Assembly: GCF_000025685.1 (NCBI RefSeq)
Contig: NC_013964.1
Span: 240,001-272,000, forward strand
DNA: 32,000 nucleotides
DNA from: Haloferax volcanii DS2
GTDB lineage: Archaea; Halobacteriota; Halobacteria; Halobacteriales; Haloferacaceae
Direction: 5' to 3'
Every line of letters starts with the position of its first letter. Position 1 is the first letter of the stretch. Made by a program: the position numbers and the translations under genes. The notes under the pieces are model-generated. The model made no database searches, had not been told where the DNA came from, and saw nothing but the letters and a program-made list of their open reading frames with translations. Of the stretch, positions 1-30,852 are shown piece by piece.

Positions 1-454
1 CGAGTTCAAGGCCGTGGAAGTGCGTGACGGTCCGAACCTCCGGCACGGGACCGTCGTAGCCGGGGTGGTTCTCCGCGGTCGTGCCGCCGAGTCGGTCGTC
101 GACGGGAAAGAGGTGTTCGCTCGGGAGGCCGCTGTTGTCGAAGCGAACGTGGACCGGGCTCCCGGCGTCCGCCTCGATGGTCGGGCCGGGATACGACCCG
201 TCGAACCCCCAGACCGTCGTCTCCGGCAGGTCCGGGTGAAGCTGTTGGGTGAACTCGGTGACCGCTATCTCGTACGCGTCCGCGCCGTCTCGCTGTCCGT
301 CGGGCTCTCGGACCGACGGAATCGGAAGCGGTTGGACGAACTTCTCCAACGTCGGTGACGCCGCCGACACCTCCGTCGTCGTCTGCGGGAGCGTTCCGGC
401 GATGCCGAGGGCTGCGCCTGTCTGTAAGAACCGCCGCCTAGACCAGTCTGTCAT
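1..454 (-). CDS. lccA: Multicopper oxidase (laccase-type), N-terminal ~151 codons; gene runs off the window start
   Basis: Not in the ORF track because it runs off the edge. My own minus-strand translation from the ATG at 454 gives MTDWSRRRFLQTGAALGIAGTLP...TVWGFDGSYPGPTIEADAGSPVHVRFDN...VTHFHGLEL. It has a twin-arginine signal (SRRRFLQTG), a cupredoxin domain-1 pattern and the HxHG copper-ligand motif of multicopper oxidases. The N-terminus matches my memory of Haloferax volcanii LccA; that identity is unverified. Confidence 0.85.
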   Translation of the reverse strand, partial: MTDWSRRRFLQTGAALGIAGTLPQTTTEVSAASPTLEKFVQPLPIPSVREPDGQRDGADAYEIAVTEFTQQLHPDLPETTVWGFDGSYPGPTIEADAGSPVHVRFDNSGLPSEHLFPVDDRLGGTTAENHPGYDGPVPEVRTVTHFHGLEL

Positions 455-482
455 GATGGACCCTGAACTACGACTTGGGAGT

Positions 483-496
483 TATTATATTAAATC
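483..496 (-). promoter_or_regulatory. AT-rich TATA-like box upstream of the multicopper oxidase gene
   Basis: ttattatattaaat is the only AT-rich patch in the 455-589 intergenic gap. It lies about 30-40 nt upstream of the ATG at 454 on the minus strand. Confidence 0.35.
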
Positions 497-562
497 TTCT
501 GAATGTCCGAATCAGGCCCGAGAACGGGCGTCGAGAGCGTGGCTGACCGCGGCGATTCGAGT

Positions 563-585
563 GCGAGACGGGCGGGCCGTCTCGC
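563..585 (-). terminator. GC-rich hairpin just downstream of the surface-protein gene stop
   Basis: Perfect 9-bp inverted repeat, gcgagacgg (563-571) and ccgtctcgc (577-585), with a 5-nt loop. It begins a few nt past the stop codon at 590-592 (minus strand). No clear oligo-T follows, so the termination role is tentative. Confidence 0.3.
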
Positions 586-589
586 TTCG

Positions 590-2302
590 CTAGGTCGCTC
601 GCCGGCGCGCGAGGAGGACCGAGCCGATTACCAGCGCGGCGAGCGCGACCGAGACGCCGAACCCGGGGACGGGCGTGTCGGTGGTGGTCGTCGCGGGCGT
701 GTTATCGTCGGTCGTCGTCTCCGGAGTCCCTCCCGAGTCGCCGTCCGACCCGTCGGAACCGTCGCCTGCGTCGTCACCGTCGTTCGAGTCGTCGCTGTCG
801 TCACCAGTGTCGTCATCGTCGCCGTCGTTCGAGTCGTCGCTGTCGCCCGAGTCGTCATCGCCGTCGTTCGAGTCGTCGCTGTCGTCACCAGTGTCGTCAT
901 CGTCGCCGTCGTCCGGGGAGTCCGTGGACTCGGGCGTGTCGGAGTTCCCGTCGTCCGTATCGTCATCATCACTCTCGTCGTTATCGTCGTCATCTCTATC
1001 GTCGTCGTCATCGTCACTGCCGCCGCCACCACCACCACCGCCGCCACCGGCGTCGTCGTCGGAACCGACCGCGAGCGTCTCGACGCCGTCGACGCTCATC
1101 TCCTTGCCGTCGGCGTCGAACTGGGTGAACCCGTTGAGCCGGTACGAGGCGTCTTCGTCCACGTCCTCGCCGGCGGTCACGCGATACTGGAGCGTGACGT
1201 TCTCGCGGTCGCCGTAAGTGGCGAACAGTTCGTCGTTGGCGTCGCGCACCCCGGAGAAGTCCGCGCCGTCGGCGTCGACGATTTCGACCGACGCGAAGCC
1301 GGGGTTGAACTCCTCGACGACGGTGAAGTTCGTCGCCTCGTCGCCGGTGATTTCGACCGAGACGACGGCCGATTCGCCGGGGTCGAGCGTCTCGTCGTCG
1401 ACCGACCGGGTGAGGTCCCAGTTGTCGTCGTCGTCGGACCCGCTTTGGACGTCGAGCTCGTCCGTTCCACCGGTCGCCGCCTCGGAGCCGTTGACGTCGG
1501 CGAAGCCGTCGAACTGATAGGCCGTTCCGGCGTCCCCGTCGTCGGCCGCTGTCACCTCGTAGACGAGCGAGACCGTCTCGCGGTCGCCGTAGGTCGCGAA
1601 CAGTTCGTCGTTGGCGTCACGGACGCCGGAGAAGTCCGCGCCGTCGGCGTCGACGATTGCCACCGAGTCGAACGCGGGGGTGAACGCCTCGACCAGCGTG
1701 AAGTTCGCCGCCCGGTCGCGGTTGACCTCGACGCGGACGGTCGTCGATTCGCCCGGTTCGAGCGTCGCCTCGTCGACCGACCGGACCACGCTCGCGCCGG
1801 CGTCGGACGAGACGCTAATCTCCTCGTCGCCGGTCGTCGAGGCACGAATATCTTCGAGCCCGAAGTCGCCGTAGCCGGTGAGGTCGTGGGTCGTCGCGGT
1901 CGCGTTATCGGCCGCGGTCACCTCGTAGACGAGGGTGACGTTCTCGCGGTCGCCGTAGGTCGCGAACAGCTCGTCGTTGCCGTCGCGCACCCCGGAGAAG
2001 TCCGCGCCGTCGGCGTCGACGATTTCGACCGACGCGAAGCCCGGACTCAGCTCTTCGACCACCGTGAAGTTCCCCCGTTCGGAGGCGTTTATCGCCACCG
2101 TGACCGTCGTCGACTCGCCGGGCGCGAGCGACGACTCGTCGACCGTCCGAGTGAGCGTCCCGCCGTGGGCGTCCGCGGCGACCGGCGCGATAGCCGCCCC
2201 CAGCCCGAGCGACCCGACCACCAGAAGGGCCGCCATCACGACGACGGGGAGCGCACGTCGCACCTCCGACGACAGCCTCGGGCGTGAACTGTCCGGTCTC
2301 AT
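590..2302 (-). CDS. Secreted cell-surface glycoprotein with PGF-CTERM archaeosortase sorting signal
   Basis: 570 aa. N-terminal hydrophobic signal (ALPVVVMAALLVVGSLGLGAAIAPVAADA). Three ~100-aa repeats. A ~125-aa Asp/Gly/Ser/Thr low-complexity spacer. The C-terminus TPVPGFGVSVALAALVIGSVLLARRRAT is a PGF motif plus TM helix plus basic tail. Eight N-x-S/T sequons and a Thr-rich linker precede the PGF motif. Confidence 0.88.
   Translation of the reverse strand: MRPDSSRPRLSSEVRRALPVVVMAALLVVGSLGLGAAIAPVAADAHGGTLTRTVDESSLAPGESTTVTVAINASERGNFTVVEELSPGFASVEIVDADGADFSGVRDGNDELFATYGDRENVTLVYEVTAADNATATTHDLTGYGDFGLEDIRASTTGDEEISVSSDAGASVVRSVDEATLEPGESTTVRVEVNRDRAANFTLVEAFTPAFDSVAIVDADGADFSGVRDANDELFATYGDRETVSLVYEVTAADDGDAGTAYQFDGFADVNGSEAATGGTDELDVQSGSDDDDNWDLTRSVDDETLDPGESAVVSVEITGDEATNFTVVEEFNPGFASVEIVDADGADFSGVRDANDELFATYGDRENVTLQYRVTAGEDVDEDASYRLNGFTQFDADGKEMSVDGVETLAVGSDDDAGGGGGGGGGGSDDDDDDRDDDDNDESDDDDTDDGNSDTPESTDSPDDGDDDDTGDDSDDSNDGDDDSGDSDDSNDGDDDDTGDDSDDSNDGDDAGDGSDGSDGDSGGTPETTTDDNTPATTTTDTPVPGFGVSVALAALVIGSVLLARRRAT
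683..1063 (-). repeat. Low-complexity acidic spacer coding region with short tandem DNA repeats and a (GGN)10 tract
   Basis: Encodes SDDDAGGGGGGGGGGSDDDDDDRDDDDNDESDDDD...(T/S)GD(D/S)SDDSNDGDDD x3. The 22-mer gtcgttcgagtcgtcgctgtcg occurs at 779, 824 and 863 (periods 45 and 39 nt). The Gly10 run is encoded at about 1021-1050. Confidence 0.9.
1109..2161 (-). repeat. Three intragenic domain repeats (aa 48-148, 169-270, 295-398) of the surface protein
   Basis: Repeated core: VD(E/D)xxLxPGES..V.V......NFT.VE.F.P.F.SV.IVDADGADFSGVRD.NDELFATYGDRE.V.L.Y.VTA. At DNA level the stretch beginning gcgaacag recurs at 1221, 1596 and 1962, offsets of 375 and 741 nt (125 and 247 codons). The 1221 and 1962 copies are nearly identical over about 80 nt. 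Confidence 0.9.
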
Positions 2303-2687
2303 GGTGAGCGAGCGAGGTTCGGTCCCGACGGGTCACTCGTTCCGCGAGCGACGTGCGAAGCGGCCGTCGGGGGCTTCGATTCGCCCCGGCGGGTCGCGGT
2401 CGTGTGACGGGTCGCGGCCGCCGGCGGTGTCTGTTCGACTCGTCGGTCTGGAGACGGGCGTCTCGGGCGCGCGCTACCTCTGAACGCCGATAGCTGGCTC
2501 TCGTTGGAACGCATGCAATCAGCGTGTGAATCGAAATCGCCATGCAAATAGTTAACGATCATCTGACTCGGTCCCGCGCTCGGCGGGCCGCGACGCCACT
2601 CGCGGGACGCCGCTCGTCGGAGTCCGAGCCCCATTCGGGGCGATATTCGGTGAGTCGCGCCGCGAATCCGCGCCCGTTTTCGGCGTT

Positions 2688-3539
2688 TCAGCGGACGTAG
2701 TCGGCCAGTTCGTCTCGCGCGCGCCGGGCCGCGTCGTCGGGGTCGTCGGGGTAGGTGTACAGTTCGAACGTGGCGAAGCCGTCGTACCCGATGTCGTCGA
2801 GCGCGCCGAAGACGGGGTCGAACTCGATGTCACCTTCGCCGGGGACGAGGTGGTAGTGTTTCCCGCCGCGGCCGCCCGCGATGTCTTCGAGGTGGACGCC
2901 CGTGATGCGGCCGGCGCACTGGCGGATGCTCTCGGCCGGGTCCTCGCCGCAGACGGCCGCGTGGCCGACGTCGAAGTTGACGCCGAGCGCGTCGCTCCCC
3001 ACGTCGTCGATGAGGGTGAGCACCTCCTCGGTGTCCTCGACGAGTAGTTCGGGTTCGAACTCGATGCCGAGGTCGACGCCGACGCGTTCGGCGTAGTCGG
3101 TGAGTTCGTCGAGCGAGTCGAGCAGGTGGTCGTAGGCCTCGTCCGGCGGCGTTCCGGGGAGCGCCGACCCGCTCGCGACGCACGCCGCGGGCGCGCCGAC
3201 CAGCGCCGCGAAGTCGAGCGCGGCCTTCGTGTAATCGATGCGCCACCGGCGGTCCTCCTCGTCGCCCGAGATGAGCGTCGGGTCGAAGAACGCCGAGGGC
3301 GGCGCGTCGTCGTAGTAGCCGCGGGTCGTGTTCGCGTTGACGTTCGACACGGAGAGGCCGGTCTCGTCAAGCGCGGTCAAGACGCGCTCGCGGTCGCGCT
3401 CGTCGAAGTCCGCGAGGAACGCGTGCGGCACGTCCGCCAGTATTTCGACCCCGTCGTAGCCGTGGTCTGCGATTCGTCTGATTGCCTCCGGCAGGTCGAA
3501 ACGCGTGTACGCGTTCGTGGAGAAGGCTAACTGTACCAT
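2688..3539 (-). CDS. Sugar phosphate isomerase/epimerase, xylose-isomerase-like TIM barrel (AP endonuclease 2 fold)
   Basis: MVQLAFSTNAYTRFDLPEAIRRIADHGYDGVEILADVPHAF...HLEDI...FELY is the typical family pattern. The track start at 3557 is GTG. I prefer the ATG at 3539 because an AT-rich box (3561-3574) is centred about 28 nt upstream, which fits a leaderless transcript. Confidence 0.85.
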   Translation of the reverse strand: MVQLAFSTNAYTRFDLPEAIRRIADHGYDGVEILADVPHAFLADFDERDRERVLTALDETGLSVSNVNANTTRGYYDDAPPSAFFDPTLISGDEEDRRWRIDYTKAALDFAALVGAPAACVASGSALPGTPPDEAYDHLLDSLDELTDYAERVGVDLGIEFEPELLVEDTEEVLTLIDDVGSDALGVNFDVGHAAVCGEDPAESIRQCAGRITGVHLEDIAGGRGGKHYHLVPGEGDIEFDPVFGALDDIGYDGFATFELYTYPDDPDDAARRARDELADYVR

Positions 3540-3560
3540 ACGTCGTGGTACAGTCACACA

Positions 3561-3574
3561 TGAATAATTGTTTT
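3561..3574 (-). promoter_or_regulatory. TATA-like box for the 2688-3539 TIM-barrel gene
   Basis: tgaataattgtttt (minus strand aaaacaattattca) is centred about 28 nt upstream of the ATG at 3539. Confidence 0.45.
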
Positions 3575-3634
3575 GGTACTGTCACTCATTCGGGCCGAAA
3601 AACGTGAAGCGAGCCGCCGAGGGAGCCCGTCGGT

Positions 3635-4597
3635 TCACGACACGTCGAACGCCGACGAGAGGCCGACCGCCGGGACGACGAACGCCGCCGCGACGACGCC
3701 CCACACGGGTGTCAGCAGTCCGGAAAGCGCCCCGTTGAGGACGACGAGACCGAGGACGCACGCGCCGACGGCGGGGCCGATAGTGCTCGGTCGAGGGTCG
3801 GCGTAGGCGGTCAGGAGGTCGCGGCCGGTCCACGCCGCGAACCAGCAGAGCAAGCCACCGGCCACGACGACCGTCGCGGTATCGCTCGGGCCGACGCCGA
3901 CCGCCGCGCCGGCCGCGACCACCGACCCGACGGCGAGTCCGACACCGGCCATTCCGACCAGCACCGCCCGCGAGTCGCCCGCACCGGTCTCGCGCTCGGC
4001 CATGTACGTGACGCCGGCGATGTAGAGCGCGACGACGACCGGCACGAAGAACACCCACGCCGGGAGCGTCAGGGTCGTCGGGGCGGAGGGCGACCCAGCG
4101 ACGACCGCCATGCCGAGAGCGACGTTCGCCCCCCGACAGCCACCCATGGCGGCGAAGCCCAGCGGCGTGCCCTTGAGCGCGCCGTCGTAGAGCGCGATGA
4201 ACGAACCGAGGACGGCGGCGACGATTCCGGCGGTCGGTCCCCCGGCGGCCGCGGCGACGACGACCCCGGCACCGAGCAGCGCGAGGCCGAGATTTCTCGC
4301 TCGCGTGCGCGACACGTCTCCCGACGGAATCGGTCGCTCCGGGCGGAGCCGGGCGTCCTCGTCGGCGTCGGCGTAGTCGTTGAGCGTCGTGCCGGCCGCG
4401 TAGAGCAGCACCGAGGCGAGCGCGGTGCCGGCGAGCGACGAGAGCGGAACCGCTGGGCGGCCGCCGCTGACCAGCACCGCCCCGAGGATAACGTCGGGCG
4501 GCGCGGTGAACAGGTTCGGGACGCGGACGAGTCTGGCGAGGCTCGAAAGCGAGCGTCGAAGACCGCCGGTCGCGGGTGTCGCGTTCGTTCGGTTCAT
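3635..4597 (-). CDS. UbiA-family integral-membrane prenyltransferase
   Basis: 320 aa with multiple hydrophobic helices. First Asp-rich motif NDYADADEDARLRPERPIPSG (aa 73-93) fits NDxxDxxxD...RP(I/L)xSG. YDGALKG is also present. ATG start checked at 4595-4597. Confidence 0.88.
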   Translation of the reverse strand: MNRTNATPATGGLRRSLSSLARLVRVPNLFTAPPDVILGAVLVSGGRPAVPLSSLAGTALASVLLYAAGTTLNDYADADEDARLRPERPIPSGDVSRTRARNLGLALLGAGVVVAAAAGGPTAGIVAAVLGSFIALYDGALKGTPLGFAAMGGCRGANVALGMAVVAGSPSAPTTLTLPAWVFFVPVVVALYIAGVTYMAERETGAGDSRAVLVGMAGVGLAVGSVVAAGAAVGVGPSDTATVVVAGGLLCWFAAWTGRDLLTAYADPRPSTIGPAVGACVLGLVVLNGALSGLLTPVWGVVAAAFVVPAVGLSSAFDVS

Positions 4598-4642
4598 CGT
4601 CGGCCAGTCGCTGGGACGGGTGCTCGCGTTCGAGCGAGGCGG

Positions 4643-5518
4643 TCAGGTCCACCCATGGGCTTCGAGGTACTCCATCGCGGTTCGGGCCGTCTCCGCCGCA
4701 GTCTCCTGATAGGGGTACAGTTCGACCGTGACGTGGCCGTCGTAGCCGGTCGCCTCGACCGCGTCGAGGAAGCCGTCGATGTCCATCGCCCCCTCACCGA
4801 GTTGGGTGTGTTCGTGGGTGCGGTCCGCGGGGATGTCTTCGAGGTGATAATGTGGCGTGTGGGGTTCGAGCGTCTCCACCAGTTCGACCGGGTCCTCGCC
4901 GACCGAGTAGAAGTGTCCCGCGTCGAAGTTACAGCCGATTCGGGGCGAGTCGACCCGGTCGACGAGGTCGAGGAAGTCCTCGGGGGTCTCGATGAGCAGG
5001 TGCGGTTCGGGTTCGACCAGCACGTCGACGCCGAGTTTCTCCGCGGTGTCAGCGACCTCGCGGAGCCCTCGGACGAAGGCGTCGAGCGCGTCCGCCCGCG
5101 TCATGCGCTCCGGGACGGGGCCGCCCGGCGGGACCGAGATGCTGTCCGCGCCGAGCGCGGCCGCGGTGGCGAGCGCGTTCTGCGTGTGCTCGACCCGCGC
5201 CTGTCGGTCCTCGGCCGCGAGTTCGACGAACGAGGGGTGGTGAAACGCCTCGGTGTCGCGGTTGAACGTCGCCGCCCGACTCGCCGCGGAGGGCTCGATG
5301 GCGCTGAGCATGAACGCGTTACAGTTGCTGACTTCGATGCCGCAGTCGTCGAGAAGCGTCCGAACGCGTTCGAAATCGTCGCCGTCGGCCGTCCCCGGGA
5401 ACAGATGCGGGTCGTCGAGCAGGATTTCGACGCCGTCGTAGCCGGCGTCGGCGATTGCCTCGACCCCCTCGGTGAGAGTTCGCTGGCGGAACGCGTTCAT
5501 CGAGAAGCCGAACTCCAT
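4643..5518 (-). CDS. Sugar phosphate isomerase/epimerase, xylose-isomerase-like TIM barrel (second copy)
   Basis: MEFGFSMNAFRQRTLTEGVEAIADAGYDGVEILLDDPHLFP...NFDAGHF...HYHLEDI...VELYPY. Same fold family as 2688-3539 but clearly diverged. It starts 3 nt after the upstream TatD-type gene stop. Confidence 0.85.
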   Translation of the reverse strand: MEFGFSMNAFRQRTLTEGVEAIADAGYDGVEILLDDPHLFPGTADGDDFERVRTLLDDCGIEVSNCNAFMLSAIEPSAASRAATFNRDTEAFHHPSFVELAAEDRQARVEHTQNALATAAALGADSISVPPGGPVPERMTRADALDAFVRGLREVADTAEKLGVDVLVEPEPHLLIETPEDFLDLVDRVDSPRIGCNFDAGHFYSVGEDPVELVETLEPHTPHYHLEDIPADRTHEHTQLGEGAMDIDGFLDAVEATGYDGHVTVELYPYQETAAETARTAMEYLEAHGWT

Positions 5519-5521
5519 CGG

Positions 5522-6328
5522 TCACAGCTCGTAGTGGAAGTTCGGTGACTGGCCGAAGAACTCCCGGGGGTTGTCGCAGACGACCTTCCGGACCTCGTCT
5601 CGGTCCCAGCCCCGGTCGAGCATCTTGTCTCGGGCCTTCGGGACCGCGAGCGGGTCCGAGGGGTCCCAGTCGGCGGCGCTGTTGAGCAGCATCCTGTCGG
5701 TGCCGTACTCTTCGAGGATGTCGATGGTCGTCTCGGCGTCTATCTTTCCGGGGTAGAGGGTGAAGCCGAGCCAGCAGTCGGTTTGCAGCGAGATGTCGAC
5801 CGTGTTCTCGGTGTTGTGGTCGATGACGATTCGCTCCTCGGTCACGTCCTCGTCTTGAATCATCTCGACGAGTCGCTCGGTCCCCTCGGGTTTCTGGGTG
5901 TGCGGGGTGTGGATGATGACCGGCAGTTCGCGCTCCTCCGCCATCCTGAGTTGGCGTCTGAACGCGTACTCCTCGGCCTCGGTCCCCTGGTCGAGCCCGA
6001 TTTCACCGAGTCCGACGACGTGCTCGCGGTCGAGGTACTCGGGGAGGCCGTCCATCACGGCCTCGGCCATCTCGGGGTAGTTCGCCTCCTTCGGTTCGAG
6101 GCCGACCGTGACGTAGTGGTCGATGCCCGCCGCCCGCTCCGCGCGGTCGGTCTCGAACTCGATTATCTGCTCGAAGTAGTCGAAGAACGACGCCGCGTGC
6201 TGCTTGTCCGTCCCGCTCCAGAACGCCGGTTCGACGCAGCATTCCACGCCCGCGAGTCGGGCGCGCTCGTAGTCGCTCGTCGAGCGAGACACCATGTGCA
6301 TGTGCGGGTCGATAATTGGTATCGACAT
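5522..6328 (-). CDS. TatD-related metal-dependent hydrolase (amidohydrolase superfamily)
   Basis: N-terminal IIDPHMHM (HxH metal motif), GLGEIGLD and IIHTPH motifs, 268 aa. An AT-rich box at 6348-6364 is centred about 28 nt upstream of the ATG at 6328. Confidence 0.8.
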   Translation of the reverse strand: MSIPIIDPHMHMVSRSTSDYERARLAGVECCVEPAFWSGTDKQHAASFFDYFEQIIEFETDRAERAAGIDHYVTVGLEPKEANYPEMAEAVMDGLPEYLDREHVVGLGEIGLDQGTEAEEYAFRRQLRMAEERELPVIIHTPHTQKPEGTERLVEMIQDEDVTEERIVIDHNTENTVDISLQTDCWLGFTLYPGKIDAETTIDILEEYGTDRMLLNSAADWDPSDPLAVPKARDKMLDRGWDRDEVRKVVCDNPREFFGQSPNFHYEL

Positions 6329-6482
6329 GTGACCTACCTCTCTGATGGTAGTTAATCATTGTTTCGGTGGATTCGGTGACGGCCGGGGGGCGGGGGCGCC
6401 ACGGCCGCGCAACGCCCGGCCGACGCGGCCGCGAGCGACGGCGGAGACAGCTATTTACTCGTCCGCGCCGACGCCGTAGTCG
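6329..6482. promoter_or_regulatory. Divergent promoter region with back-to-back TATA-like boxes
   Basis: gtagttaatcattgttt (6348-6364) serves the minus-strand TatD operon. ctatttactc (6451-6460) serves the plus-strand zinc-ribbon ORF. Each is centred about 28 nt from its ATG. A further box, ggttatgtat (about 6742-6751), lies about 28 nt upstream of the ATG at 6774. Confidence 0.45.
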
Positions 6483-6692
6483 ATGCCGGAACACTGTCCG
6501 TTCTGCGGCGAGCCGATAGAATCGACCCGCGTCACGCCCGAGGACGGTCGCCCCTACGAGGAGTGGCGCTGCGCCGACTGCGACGAGACGTGGCGACACC
6601 CCGAGGAGACGGTTCTCGACCGGTCTCTCGATTTCAGCAAGCACGGCGACCAACTCGACAGGCGGGACGCCGACACCGACCTCGACTGGTGA
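6483..6692 (+). CDS. Small acidic zinc-ribbon protein (69 aa), two CxxC pairs
   Basis: MPEHCPFCGEPIESTRV...EEWRCADCDETWRHPEE, with C5-x2-C8 and C30-x2-C33. Acidic composition is typical of genuine halophile proteins. ATG start with a TATA-like box 28 nt upstream. No family name assignable by eye. Confidence 0.6.
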   Translation: MPEHCPFCGEPIESTRVTPEDGRPYEEWRCADCDETWRHPEETVLDRSLDFSKHGDQLDRRDADTDLDW

Positions 6693-6773
6693 ACGGTCGC
6701 CCGCCGGTACCGACGCGGAAACAATCATGATTGACGGACAAGGTTATGTATCGGCCACCGCAATCGTGAGTCG

Positions 6774-7970
6774 ATGACAGTCGGAGTGTGGATTATCGGA
6801 GCCAGAGGTAACGTCGCGAGCGTCTCGATGACCGGCGCGCGCGCAATCGCTCGCGGAGTCGCGGACACGACCGGGATGGTGACGGCCCGCGAGCCGGTGG
6901 CCGCGCTGGACCTCCCCGCCGTCGACGACCTCGTGTTCGGGGGCCACGACATCCGGTCCCAGCGAATCGAGGAGACCGCCGAGGAGATGGCGGGCCACGG
7001 CGGCGTCGTGGCACCAGACACCCTCGACGCGGTCCGCGAGGACCTCCGCGAAATCGACGAGCGCGTCGAACTCGGGACCGCCCGGCGGTGCGGCGAGGCG
7101 GTCGAAGGGATGTCCTCGGAGACGACGGGAGAGGACGTGTCGGTTGCCGACATCGTCGAGGAGATACGGGCCGACTACGCCGCCTTCGCGGACTCGCAGG
7201 GCGTCGACCGGTTGGTCGTCGTGAACGCCGCGTCGACCGAGCCGCCGATTCCGACGCCCGGCGACTACGACACGCTGGCGGCGTTCGAGACGGCGGTCGA
7301 GCGCGACGACCCGAACCTCCCCGCGAGCGCCCTGTACGCCTACGCGGCGCTCCTCGACGGCCACCCGTACGTGAACTTCACCCCCAGTACCGGCTCCTCA
7401 CTCGGCGGCCTCCGCGAACTCGCGGAGCGAAACGAGGTGCCGCACATGGGCCGCGACGGGAAGACCGGCGAGACGCTGATGAAGTCCGCGCTCGGGCCGA
7501 TGTTCGCGGGGCGGAACCTGCGCGTCCTCTCGTGGGAGGGCCACAACATCCTCGGCAACAGCGACGGACTCGTCCTCGAAGACGACGCGAACAAGGCGGG
7601 GAAGATAGAGAGCAAGGGGAGCCTGCTGGACGACATCCTCGGCTACGAGACCCACAACGCCGTCCGCATCGACTACACGCCGTCGCTCGGTGACTGGAAG
7701 ACCGCGTGGGACCACGTCCACTTCGAGGGCTTCCTCGGGACGGAGATGAAGATGCAGTTCACGTGGGAGGGGGCTGACTCGGCGCTCGCGGCCCCGCTCG
7801 TTCTCGACTTGGTTCGGCTGGCCGCCCTTGCCGACGAGCGCGGAGAGGGCGGGACGATGTCCCACCTCGCGTCCTTCTTCAAGTCGCCCGAGGGCGTCGA
7901 CCGCCACGAACTCTCCGAGCAGTTCCGCCTCCTCTACGACTACGCGGAGCGCCACGCGGAGGGAGCGTGA
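6774..7970 (+). CDS. myo-Inositol-1-phosphate synthase family enzyme (inositol-3-phosphate synthase-like)
   Basis: 398 aa. It aligns by eye along its whole length with archaeal MIPS as I recall it: VWIIGARGNVAS (NAD-binding N-terminus), ASALYAYAAL, PYVNFTPS, GRDGKTGETL(M)KS, NILGNSDG, FFKSP. Confidence 0.88.
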   Translation: MTVGVWIIGARGNVASVSMTGARAIARGVADTTGMVTAREPVAALDLPAVDDLVFGGHDIRSQRIEETAEEMAGHGGVVAPDTLDAVREDLREIDERVELGTARRCGEAVEGMSSETTGEDVSVADIVEEIRADYAAFADSQGVDRLVVVNAASTEPPIPTPGDYDTLAAFETAVERDDPNLPASALYAYAALLDGHPYVNFTPSTGSSLGGLRELAERNEVPHMGRDGKTGETLMKSALGPMFAGRNLRVLSWEGHNILGNSDGLVLEDDANKAGKIESKGSLLDDILGYETHNAVRIDYTPSLGDWKTAWDHVHFEGFLGTEMKMQFTWEGADSALAAPLVLDLVRLAALADERGEGGTMSHLASFFKSPEGVDRHELSEQFRLLYDYAERHAEGA

Positions 7971-9367
7971 CGACTCGCGACCCCTCGGCCGCTGGCGCGT
8001 CCGGTGCCGGGCGCGTCGTCGTCCTCGATATCGTCGGCCTCCAACAAACGCACCTCGACGAGGGGCTGGCACCGAACGTCGCCGACTTGCTGGCCGGCAA
8101 GCCGTCCGGCCCGCTCGAACCCTCGTTTCCGAGCGTCACGGTGCCCGCGCAGACGACGCTCTCGACCGGGCAGTCGCCCGCGGCCCACGGCGACGTGTCC
8201 AGCGGCGAGTTCGACCGCGAGCGACAGGTCGCCGAGTTCTGGGAGCGCGACCGAGGAGGCCGAACCCGGCTGTGGGAGGTCGCGAGCGACGAGGCGGGCC
8301 TCACCACGGGCGCGCTGTTCTTCCAGCACCTCATCGGCACGAGCGCCGACGTGGCCGTCACGCCGTCGCCCATCGAAGACGAGGACAACAATCTCATCGA
8401 GATGGACTGCTGGACGACCCCCGACGGCTTCTACGACGACCTCCGCGAGGAGTACGGCCACTTCCCGCTGCACAACTACTGGGGGCCGGTCGCCGACGAG
8501 CGGAGCAGCGAGTGGATTCTCGCGGCCGCGCGGGAGTCGATAGCGCGGTCCGACCCGGACCTCCTGTGGGTGTACGTGCCGTACCTCGACTACGACGCCC
8601 AGCGGCACGGCCCCGACTCGCCGGAACTCCGGGAGGCCGTCGGCGTCGTCGACGACCTCGTCGGGGAGTTCCTCGACCGGCTCGAAACGACGCCCCGCTG
8701 GGCCGAGACGGCGGTCGGCGTCGTCAACGAGTACGGCTTCAACGCGGTCGACACCCCGGTGTTTCCGAACCGGGCGCTCCGCGAGGCGGGCCTGCTCGCC
8801 GTGCGCAACGACGACGCGGGCGGCGAGAAAGTCGATATCGCCGGGTCGTCGGCGTTCGCCATGGTCGATCACCAAATCGCGCATGTCTACACCGACCGCC
8901 CGACGGCCGCCCGAAAGGTGCTCGAATCGCTCCCCGGCGTCGACGCGGTGCTCGAAGGGGAGGCCCGGGGCGACGCGGACCACCCGAACGCCGGCGACCT
9001 CGTCGTCGTCGCGGACGCGGACGCGTGGTTCCAGTACTACTGGTGGACCGACGACGCCGATGCGCCGTCGTACGCGACGGAGATAGACATCCACGCCAAG
9101 CCCGGCTTCGACCCGTGCGAACTGTTCCTCGGCGACGAGGGACTCGTGACGCTCGACCCGACGAAGGTGTCGGGGTCGCACGGCCGCATCGACCCAGACA
9201 CGCGCGGCTTCTACGGCTTCGGCGGGCCGGCGGCACCCGACGGCCCGTCCGACCGAATCGTCGATGCGCGGCGGTTCGCGCCGACGGTCGCGGACCTCCT
9301 CGGCATCGCAGAGGACGTGTCGCTCGCGTTCGAGCGCCCGTCGCTGTTCGCCGGGCCGCAAGTGTAG
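7967..9367 (+). CDS. Alkaline-phosphatase-superfamily nucleotide pyrophosphatase/phosphodiesterase (type I phosphodiesterase family)
   Basis: VVVLDIVGL...EPSFPSVTVPAQTTLSTGQSPAAHG is the metal and nucleophile-Thr motif region of NPP/AP enzymes. 466 aa with no signal peptide. The GTG start at 7967 overlaps the upstream TGA (GTGA), suggesting translational coupling to the MIPS-family gene. Confidence 0.8.
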   Translation: MTTRDPSAAGASGAGRVVVLDIVGLQQTHLDEGLAPNVADLLAGKPSGPLEPSFPSVTVPAQTTLSTGQSPAAHGDVSSGEFDRERQVAEFWERDRGGRTRLWEVASDEAGLTTGALFFQHLIGTSADVAVTPSPIEDEDNNLIEMDCWTTPDGFYDDLREEYGHFPLHNYWGPVADERSSEWILAAARESIARSDPDLLWVYVPYLDYDAQRHGPDSPELREAVGVVDDLVGEFLDRLETTPRWAETAVGVVNEYGFNAVDTPVFPNRALREAGLLAVRNDDAGGEKVDIAGSSAFAMVDHQIAHVYTDRPTAARKVLESLPGVDAVLEGEARGDADHPNAGDLVVVADADAWFQYYWWTDDADAPSYATEIDIHAKPGFDPCELFLGDEGLVTLDPTKVSGSHGRIDPDTRGFYGFGGPAAPDGPSDRIVDARRFAPTVADLLGIAEDVSLAFERPSLFAGPQV

Positions 9368-9487: not shown

Positions 9488-12400
9488 TCAGTTCCCGCCC
9501 GAACTCGCGATTTCGATGGTGCCGCGCATCCGTAGCTGGTGGGCGCGACAGACGTACTCCGCCATCGCGTCGGTGACGGTGAACGTGACGGTCTGTGACT
9601 CGCCCTGCGTCGAGAGGTACGACGTGGAGATGTCGTTGACGGTGGAGTCGTCGCCGTTGACGATTTCGAAGTTGTGGGGCGCGCCGTTGCGGTTCGTCCA
9701 CGTGAGCGTGTACTCGCCGCCGGCTTCGAGGGTGAGCGTCGGATTCGTCGCGTCCGCGATTCCGGACGGCGCGACGCCGGTCCAGCCCTCGTTGCTCTCG
9801 GCTTCGAGTTCGATGGTCGAGCCCGACGGGATGACATCGCTCCCGTCGTCGTCGCTGCCGCCGTCGTCGCCGCCGCCGCTCGTCGCCTCGACGTGCGCAG
9901 TGACGCGGTCGTAGACGAGCTCCAGCCCGTTGCCGGAGCCGCCGATGCGCGTCAGTTCGGTATCGTCGAACCAGACGGTGCCGGTGGCGTCTCCCCAGCC
10001 GCCGAACAGCAGGTTAAGCTGGAACTCGCCGGGCGACGCCCCGGTCGAGAACGTCGTTTCGAGCAGTTGCCAGCCCTCGACGGGCTCCGTGTAGTAGTCG
10101 GTGACAGAGCCCTGTCCGAGTGAGTGGACGTTGATGGTGACACCGTAGGAGCTTCCGATTTCCCCGGTTCCGTCCTCGGAGTTGCTGAAGTCGTCCGAGG
10201 TCCTGACCCACGCCCGGAAGCGGTACTCCGAGTTCGGTTCGAGGTCGTCGCGGTACTGGGTCCACGACGCATCCGCACCCTCCGTGGAGTCGACGCGGAC
10301 GCTGTACTCGCCCGTCCGCGAAACGTCCGAGGTGTAGGTGAACTCGGCCGTGCCGCCGTAGGTAGTCCCCTCCCAGTTCGCCGGGGTCTCGGGGTCCGAC
10401 GGGGAGTCGGTTCCCGCTCCCTCCTCGAACGACGCGTTCGGCAGGAGGTTGTTCCCGTCGGGGTCGGTCAGCGAGACGTTGTCGAACCACGCCGTCCCGG
10501 TGGCCGTGCCGTAGCCGCCGAACAGGCAGTTAATCTGGACCGTCGTGGTGTCCGCGCCCGTGGTGAACGTGGTACTCACCTCCGTCCAGTCGTTCGTCCC
10601 GGTCAGCGGCTCCGTCTCGAAGTCCGTGCTGTGGACGTTGAACAGCGCGCCGCGGGCAGAGTCGCTGGCCTGCACGTTCTCGGTCCGTATCCAGCCGCTG
10701 AGGGTGTACTCCGTCTCGGGCTGGACCGAGATGCCGTCGACGAGCCAGACCGCGTCCGCGCCCTCGGTGGACGAGATTTGGACGCTCTGACTGCCGTCTT
10801 GGCCCGCGTCCGCGTAGGTGTACTCGGCGGTGCCCGTGAACGTGTTCGTCGACCAGTCGGCGGGCATCGCCGGCTCGCTGCTGCCGGTGCTCTCTTCGAA
10901 GGAACCGTTCGAGAGCACGTCGGTGCCGTCCGGGTCGGTCAACGAGACGCCGTCGAACCACGCCGTCCCCGTCGCCTCGCCGTAGCCGCCGAACAGGCAG
11001 TTAATCTGGAGCTCTTCGAGGTCGCCGCTGTCGATGGTGGTGCTCAGTTCCGTCCAGTCGTTGGTGCCGGCCAGTCCGGACGGGATGGTGTCCCACTGCG
11101 TGCCCGAGTCCGTGTTCGCTATCTGCTCGACGTTGATGGTCGCGCCGAGCGGTCCCTCACCGATTGCGGTCCCGTCGACGAGTTCGAGGCCGTCGGTCCT
11201 GACGTACGCGGAGAGGGTGTACTCGGTGTTCGGGTCGACCGCGACGGTCGTGTTCCACGAGGCGTCCGCGCCCTCGGAGGACGACACCTGGACGCTCCGG
11301 TCGCCCTCGTAGCCCGTCTCGGCGTACGAGAACTCGGGCGACCCGGAGTAGTCCGTGTTCGACCAGCCGACGGGCATCGCGTCGGCGTCGCCGGTGTCGC
11401 CGCCGGCGGGCGTCTCGAACGAGGGGTTTTCGAGGAGGTTCGGCAGGTCGTCGCCGCCGTCGCCGCCGTCGCTCGTGTCCTCGTTTGCCTCGTACGCCGG
11501 GATGAAGCCGTCGGCGTGGGTCGCGCCGGCGAGCGACGCCGCGTCGACGAGAACCGTGTCCCGGTAGTTCGACTCGTCGCTAATCATCTGGTAGACCGCC
11601 TCGCCGGACGCGTCGTCGGCCGGCGTCTGCGCGAGCGCGACGAGCGCCCACATGGCGACTCGCCCGTCTTCGTCGTCGAGGAGGCCGTTGTCGAGAATCG
11701 CCCCCCGCGTCTCCGCCGTCGACGGGAGGACGCGGAGTGCGGTGAGCCTGACGCCCGCCGAGGAGTGGGTCAGCGCGCCGAGCGCGGCCTGAATCGCGGT
11801 CGCGTTTCCGGTGTCGGCGTCGAGCGCGCCGAGGCCGTGCATCGTCCGCAGCGCGTGAATCGCCGCCGGGTCGAGGCCGGTTTCGTCGAGCGTCTCCGTC
11901 GCGACGAGGTCGACGAGCGCCGAGAGCGCGCCGGTCTCGTTCCGTTCGACCAACAGCCGTTGGGCCGTCTGCCGCCAGAACATGTTCGTGTTCGACAGCG
12001 CCGCCACGAGTTCTGAGACGCTCGCGTCCGAGAGGTCGGTCGGCTCGTAGCCGTCGTCGTCGCCGTAGACGACGCGGAAGAGTCGGGCGGTCGCGTGGTC
12101 GCGCACCTCGGACATGTACGCGTTTCCGGGGCCGTTCTCGAAGCCGTCGGGTGTCGGGTTGTGCTGGTAGATGTAGTTGTACCAGTCGATGAACCAGAGC
12201 ATGCCGTCCGGGCCGACGGAGGAGTACGACGGTGCGAACCACGCATCTGTCGCGGCCGCGATGTTGTGGGCGTAATGGTTGGTGTAGCCCGCGCCGTCCT
12301 GCGAGAGGAAGAACGTCCCGAGCAGGTTACCCGTTCCGCCGCCGACGAAGCCGGTGTTGTTCCAGTACTTCTCGGGATATTCACGCGCCGTGTAGATGGT

Positions 12401-14698
12401 GTGACCGGTCGCCGCGGTGTAGCCACCGTGGAGGTCGACCTGCCGGACGCGGTCCGTGACCGGAAGGAATCGGTTCGTGTCGGACGCCGCGCCGAAGTCG
12501 TTCGGCCCGGTCCCCTCGATGAGGTCGTAGTACTGATGCGGGATGGCGAAGTAGTTGCTCGGTCGCCCGGAGGTCGCCGCCGAGCCGAAGGCGAGGCCCT
12601 CCTCGGTGAAGCCGAGGCCGGCCTGGTTCCCCGGGAGCGTGCCGACGATTTCGAAGTCCGTGACTGAGCCGTCTTCCAGCTTGAATCGGAAGACTGAGGA
12701 GCTGAAGTTTCGCTCCTCGCCGGCGACGGTGCCGCTGAAGCCGGAGTAGCCGACCTGTCCCCAAATCCAGTTGTCGATGCCGTGGGCCAGTTCGTTGGGG
12801 CCGGCGTGGGTGTCGCCGTTGCCGAACCCGGAGAACAGGACCGTCCGCTCGTCGGCCTCTCCGTCGCCGTCCGTGTCAGCGAGGTGGACCATCTTCCCGC
12901 TCTCGCCGGGGTCGTCGAGGTCCGCAACGACGACGCCGTCGTCGACGACCACCATGCTCGTCGGAATCGAGAGGCCGTCCGCGAAGACGGTGAACTCGTC
13001 GGCCTCGCCGTCGCCGTCGGTGTCCTCGCAGACGACGATTTTGTCGCGGTTCTGCCCGAGTTCGTTCGGGTAGTCGCGGGTGACAGACAGCCAGACGCGA
13101 CCCCGCGCGTCGAACTTCGCGTCGAGGATGTTCCCCCGCGCGTCGTCCGGCAGGTCGGCCTCGGTGACGAACGGTTCGAGGTCGAACCCCTCCGGCGTAA
13201 TCGTCCGCCGGACCGTCTCGCTGGGGTTCAGCGCCCGCTGCATCCTGTTCCAACTCGTCCCGCTGCCGACCTCCTCGGGGACCTCCGGCGTCAGGAGGCT
13301 CCCCTCCGGCGGCGGATAGTACGGGATGTCGGCGTCGATGAACTCCAAGTCGTTGAGGACCGTGGTGTCGTCGGCGATGGTATCTTCGTTCTTCGTGACC
13401 CAGCGAATCGCGTTCTCGATGAGCGCCTTGAAGCCGTCGGTCGCCCACGGCGCTCTGCCGTGACCCCACGCGGTGTAGAAGACGCGGCCGTCGCCCTGCG
13501 TGCGGGTCCACGACCACGGTTCGCCTTGGTCGCGTCCCTCGTCGTACTCGGGGATGCTGTCGCCCTCGGGGAACTGCGCGTAGGCGAGTACGTCGATATC
13601 GTCGTTGAGGTTCGTGTGGCGATACGTCTCGTCTTCGACCGTGATGGGGTCGAGGGTCGACAGGATGGGGTGGCTCGGCTGGGCGAAGTTCGTCGTCATC
13701 TCGCCGTAGTTGTGGGCGGCGAACTCGCCGCCGACGAGGTTCATGTAAGCGTCCGAGCCGGTGAAACAGGCCGAAGCGCTGTGAATCGGGATGAAGCCGC
13801 CGCCGTTCTCGACGAACTCGACGATGGACTGCTCCTGTTCCGCGGTCAGCGATTGACCGTAGTTCGCGCCGCGGTTGTCTATCATAACCCACGCGTCGTA
13901 GCGGTGGAGCACGTCGGGTTCGAGGTCTTCGAGTCGGTCGGTGTACTGGACCTCGATACCGCGGTTCAGCATGTACCCGGTGAGCTGGACCTGCCGTGCG
14001 GGCGCGTTGTGGCTGCCGCCCTGCGGGCCACCCATCATGAGGACGCTGATGGTGTCCTCGGCCGGCGGCGGCGTTATCTCGACGCTTCCCCGCATCTGCT
14101 CGGGGTGTTCTTCGGCGTAGTACATCGCCATCGACGACTCGGCGGTGAACGTGACCGTCTCCGAGCCGCCCGACGCCTGCATCGTGGAGAACGACTCCAT
14201 CACCTCGCCGGTCGGGTCCGCGAGCACGAACGTGATGTCCTCGTCCATGGCGTTCGAGAGCTCGATTTCGTACTCCTCGCCCTCGTGCACGACGAGCGTC
14301 GGATTGGCCGTGTCCGCCATCTCGTCTGGCTCGGTCGCGACCCACGAAAACGAGTCCGCCGCGGTCTCGATTTCCGTCCCGTTTCGCCAGCTGTTGATGC
14401 CCGTCAACAGGGAGTTGGTCGTCAGGTCGCCCTCGCGCCAGTCGGATATCGCGTCCGCGAGACCCGACCCCTCGATGACGGACTCCTCGTTCGTGTACGC
14501 CGCGAGGACGTCGCCCTCCGTCGCCACGAGGCGAATCGTGTCGGTGGCGGTGAGCTGTTGCGCCTGCGCGACGCCGCTGGCCCCGAGGAAGTTCGCCGCC
14601 CCCGCGCCGCTTACCTTCATGAAGTCGCGTCTGTTGATGTTCAGTCGGTCGCCGTCGTCGTCCGGGTTCGATTCCCGTGTCGTGTCGTCGTGTGTCAT
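9488..14698 (-). CDS. Giant Tat-exported multidomain oxidoreductase-like protein (1736 aa): degenerate cupredoxin, ThuA, dehydrogenase-like propeller, HEAT, 3x CBM-like, type-1 Cu cupredoxin
   Basis: Tat signal NRRDFMKVSGAGAANFLGASGVAQA (aa 22-46). ThuA-like region, aa ~216-436 (ISVLMMGG...FIPIHSA...RVFYTAWGHG). GSDH/membrane-bound-dehydrogenase-like region, aa ~495-880 (FDARGRVWLSV, two DTDGDGEADE motifs). HEAT-like helical repeats, aa ~890-1060. Three CBM4_9-like modules, aa 1085-1584. C-terminal cupredoxin, aa ~1622-1731, with H1675, C1717, H1720, M1724. ATG start and TGA stop checked. Confidence 0.9.
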   Translation of the reverse strand: MTHDDTTRESNPDDDGDRLNINRRDFMKVSGAGAANFLGASGVAQAQQLTATDTIRLVATEGDVLAAYTNEESVIEGSGLADAISDWREGDLTTNSLLTGINSWRNGTEIETAADSFSWVATEPDEMADTANPTLVVHEGEEYEIELSNAMDEDITFVLADPTGEVMESFSTMQASGGSETVTFTAESSMAMYYAEEHPEQMRGSVEITPPPAEDTISVLMMGGPQGGSHNAPARQVQLTGYMLNRGIEVQYTDRLEDLEPDVLHRYDAWVMIDNRGANYGQSLTAEQEQSIVEFVENGGGFIPIHSASACFTGSDAYMNLVGGEFAAHNYGEMTTNFAQPSHPILSTLDPITVEDETYRHTNLNDDIDVLAYAQFPEGDSIPEYDEGRDQGEPWSWTRTQGDGRVFYTAWGHGRAPWATDGFKALIENAIRWVTKNEDTIADDTTVLNDLEFIDADIPYYPPPEGSLLTPEVPEEVGSGTSWNRMQRALNPSETVRRTITPEGFDLEPFVTEADLPDDARGNILDAKFDARGRVWLSVTRDYPNELGQNRDKIVVCEDTDGDGEADEFTVFADGLSIPTSMVVVDDGVVVADLDDPGESGKMVHLADTDGDGEADERTVLFSGFGNGDTHAGPNELAHGIDNWIWGQVGYSGFSGTVAGEERNFSSSVFRFKLEDGSVTDFEIVGTLPGNQAGLGFTEEGLAFGSAATSGRPSNYFAIPHQYYDLIEGTGPNDFGAASDTNRFLPVTDRVRQVDLHGGYTAATGHTIYTAREYPEKYWNNTGFVGGGTGNLLGTFFLSQDGAGYTNHYAHNIAAATDAWFAPSYSSVGPDGMLWFIDWYNYIYQHNPTPDGFENGPGNAYMSEVRDHATARLFRVVYGDDDGYEPTDLSDASVSELVAALSNTNMFWRQTAQRLLVERNETGALSALVDLVATETLDETGLDPAAIHALRTMHGLGALDADTGNATAIQAALGALTHSSAGVRLTALRVLPSTAETRGAILDNGLLDDEDGRVAMWALVALAQTPADDASGEAVYQMISDESNYRDTVLVDAASLAGATHADGFIPAYEANEDTSDGGDGGDDLPNLLENPSFETPAGGDTGDADAMPVGWSNTDYSGSPEFSYAETGYEGDRSVQVSSSEGADASWNTTVAVDPNTEYTLSAYVRTDGLELVDGTAIGEGPLGATINVEQIANTDSGTQWDTIPSGLAGTNDWTELSTTIDSGDLEELQINCLFGGYGEATGTAWFDGVSLTDPDGTDVLSNGSFEESTGSSEPAMPADWSTNTFTGTAEYTYADAGQDGSQSVQISSTEGADAVWLVDGISVQPETEYTLSGWIRTENVQASDSARGALFNVHSTDFETEPLTGTNDWTEVSTTFTTGADTTTVQINCLFGGYGTATGTAWFDNVSLTDPDGNNLLPNASFEEGAGTDSPSDPETPANWEGTTYGGTAEFTYTSDVSRTGEYSVRVDSTEGADASWTQYRDDLEPNSEYRFRAWVRTSDDFSNSEDGTGEIGSSYGVTINVHSLGQGSVTDYYTEPVEGWQLLETTFSTGASPGEFQLNLLFGGWGDATGTVWFDDTELTRIGGSGNGLELVYDRVTAHVEATSGGGDDGGSDDDGSDVIPSGSTIELEAESNEGWTGVAPSGIADATNPTLTLEAGGEYTLTWTNRNGAPHNFEIVNGDDSTVNDISTSYLSTQGESQTVTFTVTDAMAEYVCRAHQLRMRGTIEIASSGGN
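9947..11446 (-). repeat. Three tandem CBM-like modules (~155-170 aa each) within the giant gene
   Basis: Shared pattern: N(L/V)L.N.SFE....P..W........(E/Y)(F/Y)(S/T)Y......G..S(V).(V/I).S.EGADA.W......(V).P(N/E)(T/S)EY...(A/G)(Y/W)(V/I)RT...Q(I/L)N(C/L)LFGG(Y/W)G.ATGT.WFD. An identical 31-mer, ccgtagccgccgaacaggcagttaatctgga, occurs at 10509-10539 and 10980-11010 (offset 471 nt, 157 codons). Confidence 0.9.
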
Positions 14699-15148
14699 AG
14701 TGTTGCGTCGGTCGCTGTCGTCGGTTACCGTTCGATTCAGGGTTGCGCTGCTCTCGGGGAGCGCACCCCGGCCGCGTCCCCCGCCAACGGGCCGAGCGGA
14801 CAGACGGCTCTCCCCCCGCGCGCTCGCCCGAACCGCTCGACGAGGTGTGACGGGTGTATCGCCGTTACGTCCGCAGGCTCATTGTGGTGGGCTACCGAAT
14901 TTCATGAACTAACATTACTTGAATGTACTGTCCGGCGGCAAGGAGCGACCGCCCGGTTCACCGCCTCAGTCGCCGGTGAACGTTGGCCTAACCCCAATGT
15001 TAATTATTGTCTGTCGTGTTGCTTCAGTTGCACGTATGAACCGCGCACACACACAGTCTGTCGTACCGGCGGCGACGCCAAGGGGCGTCGCGGGTTCGAA
15101 CCACGGGGGCGGACCGACCGGGCGCGAGCGGCCCGAAGCGGGTGGCCG

Positions 15149-16360: not shown

Positions 16361-16540
16361 GACGACCGACATCGACGTGAGGCCGCCTCCGACGACCCAA
16401 TAGCTCCACCGAGACGGCCGCGTGTCGCCCCGCGAGCAGCGACGCTCGAAACACCGACCGGCGGAATTTCCCGCTCGCAGTCGGTCGTTCGACCTGTTTT
16501 CTACCTGTATAATCACAAAGTTTAACTATATCATGACACC

Positions 16541-22027: not shown

Positions 22028-22037
22028 AATATTATTT
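22028..22037 (+). promoter_or_regulatory. TATA-like box for the PQQ-like propeller gene
   Basis: aatattattt is centred about 29 nt upstream of the ATG at 22061, which fits a leaderless transcript. Confidence 0.45.
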
Positions 22038-30846: not shown

Positions 30847-30852
30847 TCGAAG

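Follow-up and report, generated by a model that had tools for sequence, protein, structure and literature searches.

The question raised by the locus described here is what a haloarchaeon makes with a membrane prenyltransferase that is encoded next to a cyclitol-forming enzyme. The locus is a megaplasmid-borne gene cluster of Haloferax volcanii DS2, and it was analysed in a 32-kb window (contig NC_013964.1, positions 240,001-272,000) whose coordinates are used throughout. We consider it likely that the cluster represents a variant, found in haloarchaea, of the bacterial ebo-type biosynthetic clusters and, by analogy with these, that its product would be prenylated, cyclitol-derived and probably aromatic, rather than a prenyl-inositol lipid. 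The architecture is new; ebo clusters containing an inositol-phosphate synthase (MIPS) are already known, and the only earlier notice of the haloarchaeal form is its inclusion in the counts of a genome survey. The genes are the following:

2688-3539, minus strand: TIM1, a small xylose-isomerase-like TIM barrel of 283 aa, 3' of the UbiA gene (Pfam AP_endonuc_2, 159 bits)
3635-4597, minus strand: EboC-like UbiA-superfamily membrane prenyltransferase of 320 aa (Pfam UbiA, 71 bits)
4643-5518, minus strand: TIM2, a small xylose-isomerase-like TIM barrel of 291 aa, 5' of the UbiA gene (Pfam AP_endonuc_2, 154 bits)
5522-6328, minus strand: EboB-type TatD-fold metal hydrolase of 268 aa, opening the minus-strand unit (Pfam TatD_DNase, 71 bits)
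6483-6692, plus strand: zinc-ribbon micro-protein of 69 aa in the divergent spacer (open reading frame, ORF, read from the sequence)
6774-7970, plus strand: MIPS of 398 aa, HVO_B0213 (Pfam NAD_binding_5, 166 bits, and Inos-1-P_synth, 118 bits)
7967-9367, plus strand: EboF-type phosphodiesterase/pyrophosphatase of the alkaline-phosphatase superfamily (NPP), 466 aa (Pfam Phosphodiest, 166 bits)

A first-pass annotation made from the sequence had listed six of these genes and overlooked the seventh, the zinc-ribbon ORF at 6483-6692 (+). All six ORFs are present at the coordinates that it gave, each far above its own Pfam gathering cut-off, and its two details of spacing hold: the coordinates leave a gap of 3 nt between the TatD and TIM2 genes, and the stop of the MIPS gene and the start of the NPP gene share the letters GTGA at 7967-7970, read directly in the sequence. 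This overlap suggests translational coupling. The start of TatD at 6328 finds support in homologues whose alignment begins at residue 1 (79-87% identity). The spacing suggests three transcription units: one on the minus strand (TatD-TIM2-UbiA-TIM1), one with the zinc-finger gene alone, and one with MIPS and NPP, which overlap. A search of the divergent spacers from five type-I clusters gave no conserved regulatory motif.

The first line of evidence for a relationship to ebo clusters is the prenyltransferase. In a scan against NCBIfam its two top models were EboC (NF035940, 159.3 bits) and SCO3242 (NF045897, 157.1 bits), with about twice the score of any other prenyltransferase model. The next best reached 75 bits, the named DGGGPS model 59.5 bits and the haem O synthase, UbiA and MenA-like models 26-36 bits; taken together, the DGGGPS, MenA, UbiA and haem O synthase families gave 22-75 bits against cut-offs of 181-436. 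The mean identity was 30-36% to EboC-like proteins and 21% to the outgroups. In neighbour-joining trees the haloarchaeal proteins formed a clade with 100% bootstrap support within the EboC-like group, which was split from E. coli UbiA, MenA and CyoE with 85-92% support. The nearest outgroup was DGGGPS, and when the partial M. jannaschii DGGGPS and one long-branch sequence (L032) were kept, the support was 47%. Grouping with DGGGPS, MenA or haem O synthase was the risk named in the first-pass annotation, and the protein was found with the EboC-like clade instead. The motif N73-D74-xx-D77-xxx-D81 was invariant in the alignment. In addition, the conserved Y66 aligned with the Tyr that in the EboC group replaces the substrate-binding Arg of UbiA and that has been proposed to contact the aromatic acceptor (PMC9235831).

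The second line of evidence is the enzyme in the cyclitol-forming slot. The MIPS protein gave a full-length match to the A. fulgidus MIPS 1U1I (298 bits), and D225, N255, L257, K274, K278, K306, D332 and K367, which we take to be the catalytic residues of the A. fulgidus work, were conserved in the alignment of the two. The actinobacterial MIPS equivalog TIGR03450 was not reached (26 bits), as expected for another subfamily. For the bacterial comparison, 80 genomic loci (one of them haloarchaeal) were sampled from the UbiA pattern RPERPIPSG and their neighbouring genes were typed by tblastn and NCBIfam. A MIPS gene adjoined EboC-like genes in at least 7 actinobacterial, rokubacterial and gemmatimonadotal loci, and the Haloferax protein was 44-48% identical to the MIPS of these Actinomycetota, Rokubacteria and Gemmatimonadota. 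The replacement of the cyclase by MIPS that had been read from the Haloferax sequence is thus present in these three phyla as well, and the MIPS-containing bacterial variants mentioned in the first-pass annotation are described for Actinomycetota in preprints of 2024 and 2026.

The TatD protein matched the TatD genes of at least about 50 bacterial ebo loci at 200-246 bits (42-47% identity), and the NPP protein matched the EboF genes of at least about 50 such loci at 230-275 bits (about 40% identity). Because both match the EboB and EboF genes of all architecture types at 200-275 bits, they are genuine counterparts of these proteins, as had been proposed from the families alone. It must be noted that NCBIfam holds no curated EboB model.

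The same cannot be said of the two TIM barrels, which had been taken for a duplicated EboE. Against the EboE model (NF035939, cut-off 250 bits) TIM1 scored 25.5 and TIM2 18.8 bits, and both fell in a clade apart from true EboE with 100% bootstrap support. They are paralogues with 39% identity. The best NCBIfam models for TIM1 were sugar and inosose epimerases, isomerases and dehydratases (FrlC 97, IolO 74 and IolE 63 bits); TIM2 matched MJ1311, IolI and AsbF in the PDB, and IolI and AsbF, an aromatising dehydratase, are among the nearest solved relatives of the TIM barrels. In the tree the small TIM clade was divided into two subfamilies. Subfamily X holds the planctomycetal downstream TIM and the TIM of MIPS-type clusters, and subfamily Y, with 80-89% support, the planctomycetal upstream TIM and both haloarchaeal TIMs. 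TIM2 was closest to the planctomycetal TIM upstream of EboC (40-43% identity, about 220 bits). This small TIM family, with its X and Y types, accompanies the EboC-like genes of haloarchaea, Planctomycetota and Actinomycetota, and it is easy to mistake for EboE.

Four architectures were found among the sampled loci (the letters A-F denote the Ebo proteins, M stands for MIPS and T for a small TIM):

Canonical: A-B-C-D-E-F, in Bacteroidota, Anabaena, Leptospira and others
MIPS type: M-C-T-A-B-E-F, in Actinomycetota and Rokubacteria, rearranged in Gemmatimonadota
Planctomycetal: T-C-T-F(-B), in Planctomycetota
Haloarchaeal: B-T-C-T divergent from M-F, in haloarchaea

One close relative is the Actinomycetota-type ebo/ino cluster (SCO3242-SCO3243 type), which was seen in Actinoplanes, Actinocorallia, Sphaerimonospora and Acrocarpospora and for which Saccharomonospora sp. 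CNQ-490, a saccharoquinoline/thallusin producer, is the representative. It shares with the haloarchaeal cluster a MIPS in place of EboD beside an EboC-like UbiA, the TatD and NPP counterparts and a small non-EboE TIM. Of the two, only the Actinomycetota type has an EboA-domain gene, a true EboE (414 bits) and, often, a polyprenyl diphosphate synthase; in Actinoplanes solisilvae (L018) the latter follows EboF at 15541-16611. Its UbiA is a true SCO3242 member (378 bits, against 157 in Haloferax), its small TIM is X-type and placed after the UbiA gene, whereas both haloarchaeal TIMs are Y-type, and its genes run M-C-T-A-B-E-F on one strand instead of in two divergent groups.

The Planctomycetota clusters (e.g., Adhaeretor mobilis HG15A2, L055) have the same TIM-UbiA-TIM core order as the haloarchaea. 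Among bacterial proteins, the haloarchaeal TIMs are most closely related to the upstream TIM of these clusters, with the 40-43% identity given above. As in haloarchaea, EboA and EboE are missing nearby and the UbiA stays under the EboC cut-off (191 bits). In contrast to haloarchaea, they have no MIPS or EboD within 10 kb, the downstream TIM is X-type, the NPP gene comes next on the same strand and there is no zinc-finger gene. Compact TIM-EboC-TIM-EboF(-EboB) clusters without EboE were seen in many planctomycetal genomes (loci L010, L011, L017 and L055), whereas the planctomycetal ebo genes are called scattered in a 2026 preprint. The canonical eboABCDEF of Bacteroidota, Cyanobacteria and eustigmatophyte plastids resembles the haloarchaeal set in a UbiA of the same clade with the same Tyr, in EboB and EboF counterparts and in a dedicated cyclitol-forming enzyme. 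It differs in having EboD (DEI synthase), EboA and EboE, instead of which the haloarchaea have MIPS and two small TIMs, and the window UbiA shares about 30% identity with canonical EboC and scores 159 bits where Maribacter EboC reaches 364.

Within the haloarchaea, the gene set recurs in 11 other loci of 10 genera with unrelated flanks, as established by a plasmid BLAST and ten contig look-ups. These loci are from Halobaculum (L002), Halococcus (L006), a Halobacteriales metagenome-assembled genome (L013), Halostagnicola (L090), Halorubrum (L091), Halomicrobium salinisoli in two copies (L092 and L094), Haladaptatus (L093), Halobellus (L095), Halogeometricum (L096) and Haloferax gibbonsii (plasmid match). 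Since the same genes co-occur with unrelated flanks, the arrangement is more than chance, and the neighbourhood that the first-pass annotation had asked to be checked across Halobacteria is conserved. Conservation is highest for TatD (79-87% identity in 9 of 10 haloarchaeal loci, 63% in Halogeometricum) and lowest for UbiA (46-54%); NPP was 59-70% identical across the loci and the TIM1 orthologues 63-73% identical in 10 of them. In each haloarchaeal and planctomycetal locus compared, the UbiA gene is flanked by a TIM gene on either side. The chromosome of Halomicrobium salinisoli (CP084466.1) carries two full copies of the cluster, one with the zinc-finger gene and a frameshifted NPP gene and the other with neither. 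In the Haladaptatus cluster no MIPS was found within 8 kb and the NPP gene is relocated. A Gfo/Idh/MocA oxidoreductase, a TIM barrel of 323 aa and a protein with a 3-keto-disaccharide-hydrolase domain are encoded nearby (1-5438 of that locus), and these neighbours may be a third way to supply inosose. No paper on the haloarchaeal cluster was found in the literature, nor any characterised archaeal example, in line with the first-pass annotation; a preprint of May 2026 counts clusters in "two archaeal phyla" that are neither named nor analysed in its text.

The pathway proposed for Haloferax is modelled on the bacterial data. In the original ebo hypothesis the product was a prenylated cyclitol. 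The first-pass annotation still regarded it as chemically undefined, which is outdated, since the preprint of May 2026 links the ebo genes to the algal morphogen thallusin and to saccharoquinoline and reports that their presence correlates with thallusin production. According to the same preprint, deletion of eboB, eboC, eboE or eboF abolishes thallusin in Stieleria, EboC farnesylates 6,7,8-trihydroxyquinaldic acid, and aspartate and a cyclitol feed the aromatic core, the cyclitol being proposed to be aromatised with aspartate before prenylation. Earlier work had shown that EboC farnesylates 8-hydroxyquinoline-2-carboxylate, and EboC proteins of three bacterial phyla are reported to prenylate hydroxylated quinolines. 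EboD is given as a DEI synthase in a review (PMC12904256), and in the Actinomycetota-type cluster of the May 2026 preprint, which lacks eboD and contains ino1-3, the MIPS gene ino1 replaces it.

Transferred to Haloferax, MIPS would convert glucose-6-phosphate into inositol-3-phosphate, as its homology and conserved catalytic residues suggest. The EboF-type NPP, the EboB-type TatD and the two TIM barrels would then turn the cyclitol phosphate into a hydroxylated, probably aromatised acceptor, which may be formed with L-aspartate into a ring of the trihydroxyquinoline type, as in bacteria. To this acceptor the EboC-like UbiA would attach a prenyl chain from a prenyl diphosphate, a reaction that bacterial EboC performs in vitro. 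What is expected is a meroterpenoid, either lipophilic or secreted, that belongs to the thallusin/saccharoquinoline kind or is its archaeal analogue, and not a housekeeping lipid.

Several results weigh against this proposal. The prenyltransferase is below the cut-off of EboC (159.3 against 250 bits, where Maribacter EboC scores 364) and below that of the SCO3242 family (157.1 against 260 bits, where the Actinoplanes protein scores 378), so that its earlier assignment to the eboC family stands as a placement in the clade and fails at the EboC equivalog cut-off. The trees were built by neighbour-joining only, with no deep node above 59%. EboA (NF035938) gave no tblastn match at E<0.05 across the 32-kb window and 10 further haloarchaeal loci, a search that did not extend to whole genomes, and is not annotated in the PGAP records. 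EboE gave no match in the same sequences, although it is needed for thallusin in Stieleria. Neither a dehydrogenase nor an aspartate-handling enzyme is evident in the cluster, and the key bacterial evidence on thallusin comes from a preprint without peer review. With EboE and EboA missing, the end product may therefore differ from thallusin. EboD, the DHQS-like cyclase, also gave no match in the window or the 10 other loci; the absence of eboA and eboD claimed from the sequence is thus borne out by tblastn within the window.

In regard to the cut-offs, an exhaustive HMMER search with the UbiA protein returned two tiers, a tight haloarchaeal family and, below it, a broad set with 35-44% identity whose members likewise lie between the two curated families. 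Ten of the nearest 50%-identity representatives were classified and none of them reached the EboC or the SCO3242 cut-off. Since these neighbours miss the cut-offs too, membership in a hidden Markov model alone cannot place the protein. In the tree the haloarchaeal clade was joined loosely (59%) with the MIPS-type and planctomycetal proteins and not with canonical EboC; haloarchaea with the MIPS-type clade alone had 18% support and with Planctomycetota alone 0%. Because these deep nodes are weak, the donor lineage of the haloarchaeal cluster is left unplaced. A narrower version of the proposal, in which haloarchaea including H. volcanii make a meroterpenoid of the thallusin/saccharoquinoline class itself or a longer-chain analogue, by means of MIPS, two Y-type TIMs, EboB, the EboC-like enzyme and EboF and without EboA, EboD and EboE, can be put forward only tentatively by analogy with the bacterial route.

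Among the other explanations, the one that survives best is that of the first-pass annotation, in which UbiA prenylates inositol phosphate directly to a polyprenyl-inositol(-phosphate) compound of the membrane, leaving only trimming to the phosphatase and the TIM barrels. MIPS and a membrane prenyltransferase are indeed conserved together, the gene of an alkaline-phosphatase-superfamily enzyme overlaps that of MIPS, and a prenylated cyclitol was the original idea for ebo. Direct prenylation of a cyclitol phosphate has nevertheless become less likely, since EboC farnesylates hydroxyquinolines, and the use of hydroxylated quinolines extends to the EboC of three bacterial phyla. The EboC-group Tyr, for which a contact with the aromatic acceptor has been proposed, is retained in the window protein, and in bacteria the cyclitol is proposed to be aromatised with aspartate ahead of prenylation. 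Furthermore, two TIM barrels akin to inosose and dehydroshikimate dehydratases, together with a TatD-fold enzyme, exceed what trimming needs. We regard this explanation as unlikely.

It is more doubtful still that the TatD-TIM2 pair, perhaps with TIM1, consists of nucleases similar to YtkR4 and YtkR5 of the yatakemycin cluster, which would shield the DNA from a genotoxic product and have no biosynthetic role. Dorival et al. reported YtkR4 (TatD) and YtkR5 (TIM) homologues paired in Streptomyces ebo-like clusters with UbiA, NPP and MIPS genes, and showed YtkR4 and YtkR5 to be AP (apurinic/apyrimidinic) endonucleases/exonucleases. The Haloferax genes likewise pair a TatD-fold protein with a xylose-isomerase-like TIM, only 3 nt apart. 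Against a protective role, deletion of eboB abolishes thallusin in Stieleria, and on TIGR00010, the model of canonical TatD nucleases, the TatD protein scored no more than 42 bits (cut-off 206). The TIM barrels gave 50-97 bits on sugar and inosose epimerase, isomerase and dehydratase models and about 30 bits against E. coli endonuclease IV. YtkR4 and YtkR5 act on DNA, whereas the Haloferax pair stands in a biosynthetic context and is closer to sugar and inosose enzymes than to endonuclease IV.

Very little can be said for a third explanation, that MIPS is a housekeeping enzyme supplying inositol phosphate for archaetidylinositol lipids and that the ebo-like neighbourhood is incidental, or that both uses coexist. 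HVO_B0213 is listed as the Haloferax MIPS under membrane-lipid biosynthesis (PMC8305020) and is a close full-length homologue of genuine MIPS. However, the supplement of the same work lists close homologues in only 32 of 166 haloarchaea. This patchy distribution agrees with a MIPS confined to the cluster: all 10 further haloarchaeal MIPS genes whose context was examined lie inside it, with the NPP gene directly next and usually overlapping. The adjacency of MIPS to EboC-like genes in three bacterial phyla, and the retention of the rest of the cluster without MIPS in Haladaptatus, also argue against a housekeeping role.

We give almost no credence to an inositol or cyclitol catabolic (Iol-like) locus with a UbiA gene unrelated to its neighbours, because the resemblance of the TIMs to IolO, IolE and IolI and the Gfo/Idh/MocA oxidoreductases near the cluster in Haladaptatus and Halostagnicola are outweighed by a MIPS that is biosynthetic, a UbiA gene that always lies between the TIM genes, TatD and NPP counterparts of ebo biosynthetic genes and the lack of an IolG, IolD, IolB and IolC set. 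A pathway for the compatible solute di-myo-inositol phosphate requires CDP-alcohol transferase genes; these are lacking, and it was rejected.

The seventh gene of the cluster is lineage-specific. This zinc-ribbon ORF of 69 aa is annotated and called as a gene in Haloferax records, and proteins 59-68% identical to it were found in Halostagnicola, Halorubrum, Halomicrobium and Haladaptatus, always divergent from TatD; it was not found in the six other haloarchaeal loci compared. Two sub-lineages can be distinguished, one with the zinc-finger gene (Haloferax, Halorubrum, Halostagnicola, Haladaptatus and copy 1 of Halomicrobium) and the other without it. From its position beside HVO_B0213, the ORF is probably HVO_B0212, which is produced and binds zinc (PMC11241148). 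The micro-protein may be an accessory or regulatory member of the cluster confined to one sub-lineage. In Halococcus saccharolyticus (L006, 7904-8290), a truncated bacterial-type globin is encoded in the divergent spacer, where the zinc-finger gene stands in other clusters.

With respect to the surroundings of the cluster, the window DNA is 99% identical to a 578-kb plasmid of H. lucentense. A PGF-CTERM-anchored surface protein with Ig-like domains (284-2236, minus strand) lies between the cluster and a multicopper oxidase gene, a position that is not kept in other genera. The oxidase gene is found just beyond the left end of the window (L001, 7722-9377), two genes from TIM1, and in Halomicrobium (L092, 10017-11918) it comes directly after TIM1. 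To our knowledge, no enzyme has been assigned to the oxidative step from saccharoquinoline to thallusin. It is conceivable that the multicopper oxidase is tied to this oxidation, and chance is equally possible.

On the other side, directly downstream of the cluster, a protein of 1736 aa is encoded at 9488-14698 (minus strand), with a ThuA domain, a DUF7133 with a PVC-type haem-binding CxxCH region, CBM_4_9 repeats and a C-terminal cupredoxin. It is a planctomycete-style protein in a haloarchaeon. Stand-alone homologues of its cupredoxin part, 43-46% identical, are found beside the cluster in the Halobacteriales metagenome-assembled genome (L013, 7664-7939) and in Halorubrum (L091, 11243-11926). 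A ThuA domain adjoins the clusters of both Haloferax and Actinoplanes solisilvae, where one protein with ThuA, 3-keto-disaccharide hydrolase and F5/8 type C domains is encoded directly upstream of the cluster MIPS (L018, 7080-8846). The 1736-aa protein was considered as a member of the cluster; only the cupredoxin domain recurs, near two other clusters, and the ThuA matches in bacterial loci were weak. Further on (14900-32000), genes annotated in the Haloferax record include those of a Tm-1-like ATP-binding protein and of a branched-chain amino-acid ABC transporter, and the guanine plus cytosine content falls from about 0.68 to about 0.56-0.61 beyond position 26000.

The ebo system is widespread. 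The haloarchaeal set, without EboA, EboD and EboE, is a smaller gene set in which to ask which ebo steps are indispensable, and H. volcanii is a genetically tractable model archaeon. If the narrower version of the proposal is true, cyclitol-derived meroterpenoid chemistry would be extended to the Archaea, as the first from an archaeon. Its product would then be a candidate metal-binding compound, or a candidate signal between kingdoms in hypersaline communities, where algae such as Dunaliella also live. In that case the patchy MIPS of haloarchaea would serve secondary metabolism and not the synthesis of lipid head groups, which would also resolve the annotation of HVO_B0213 and its neighbours.

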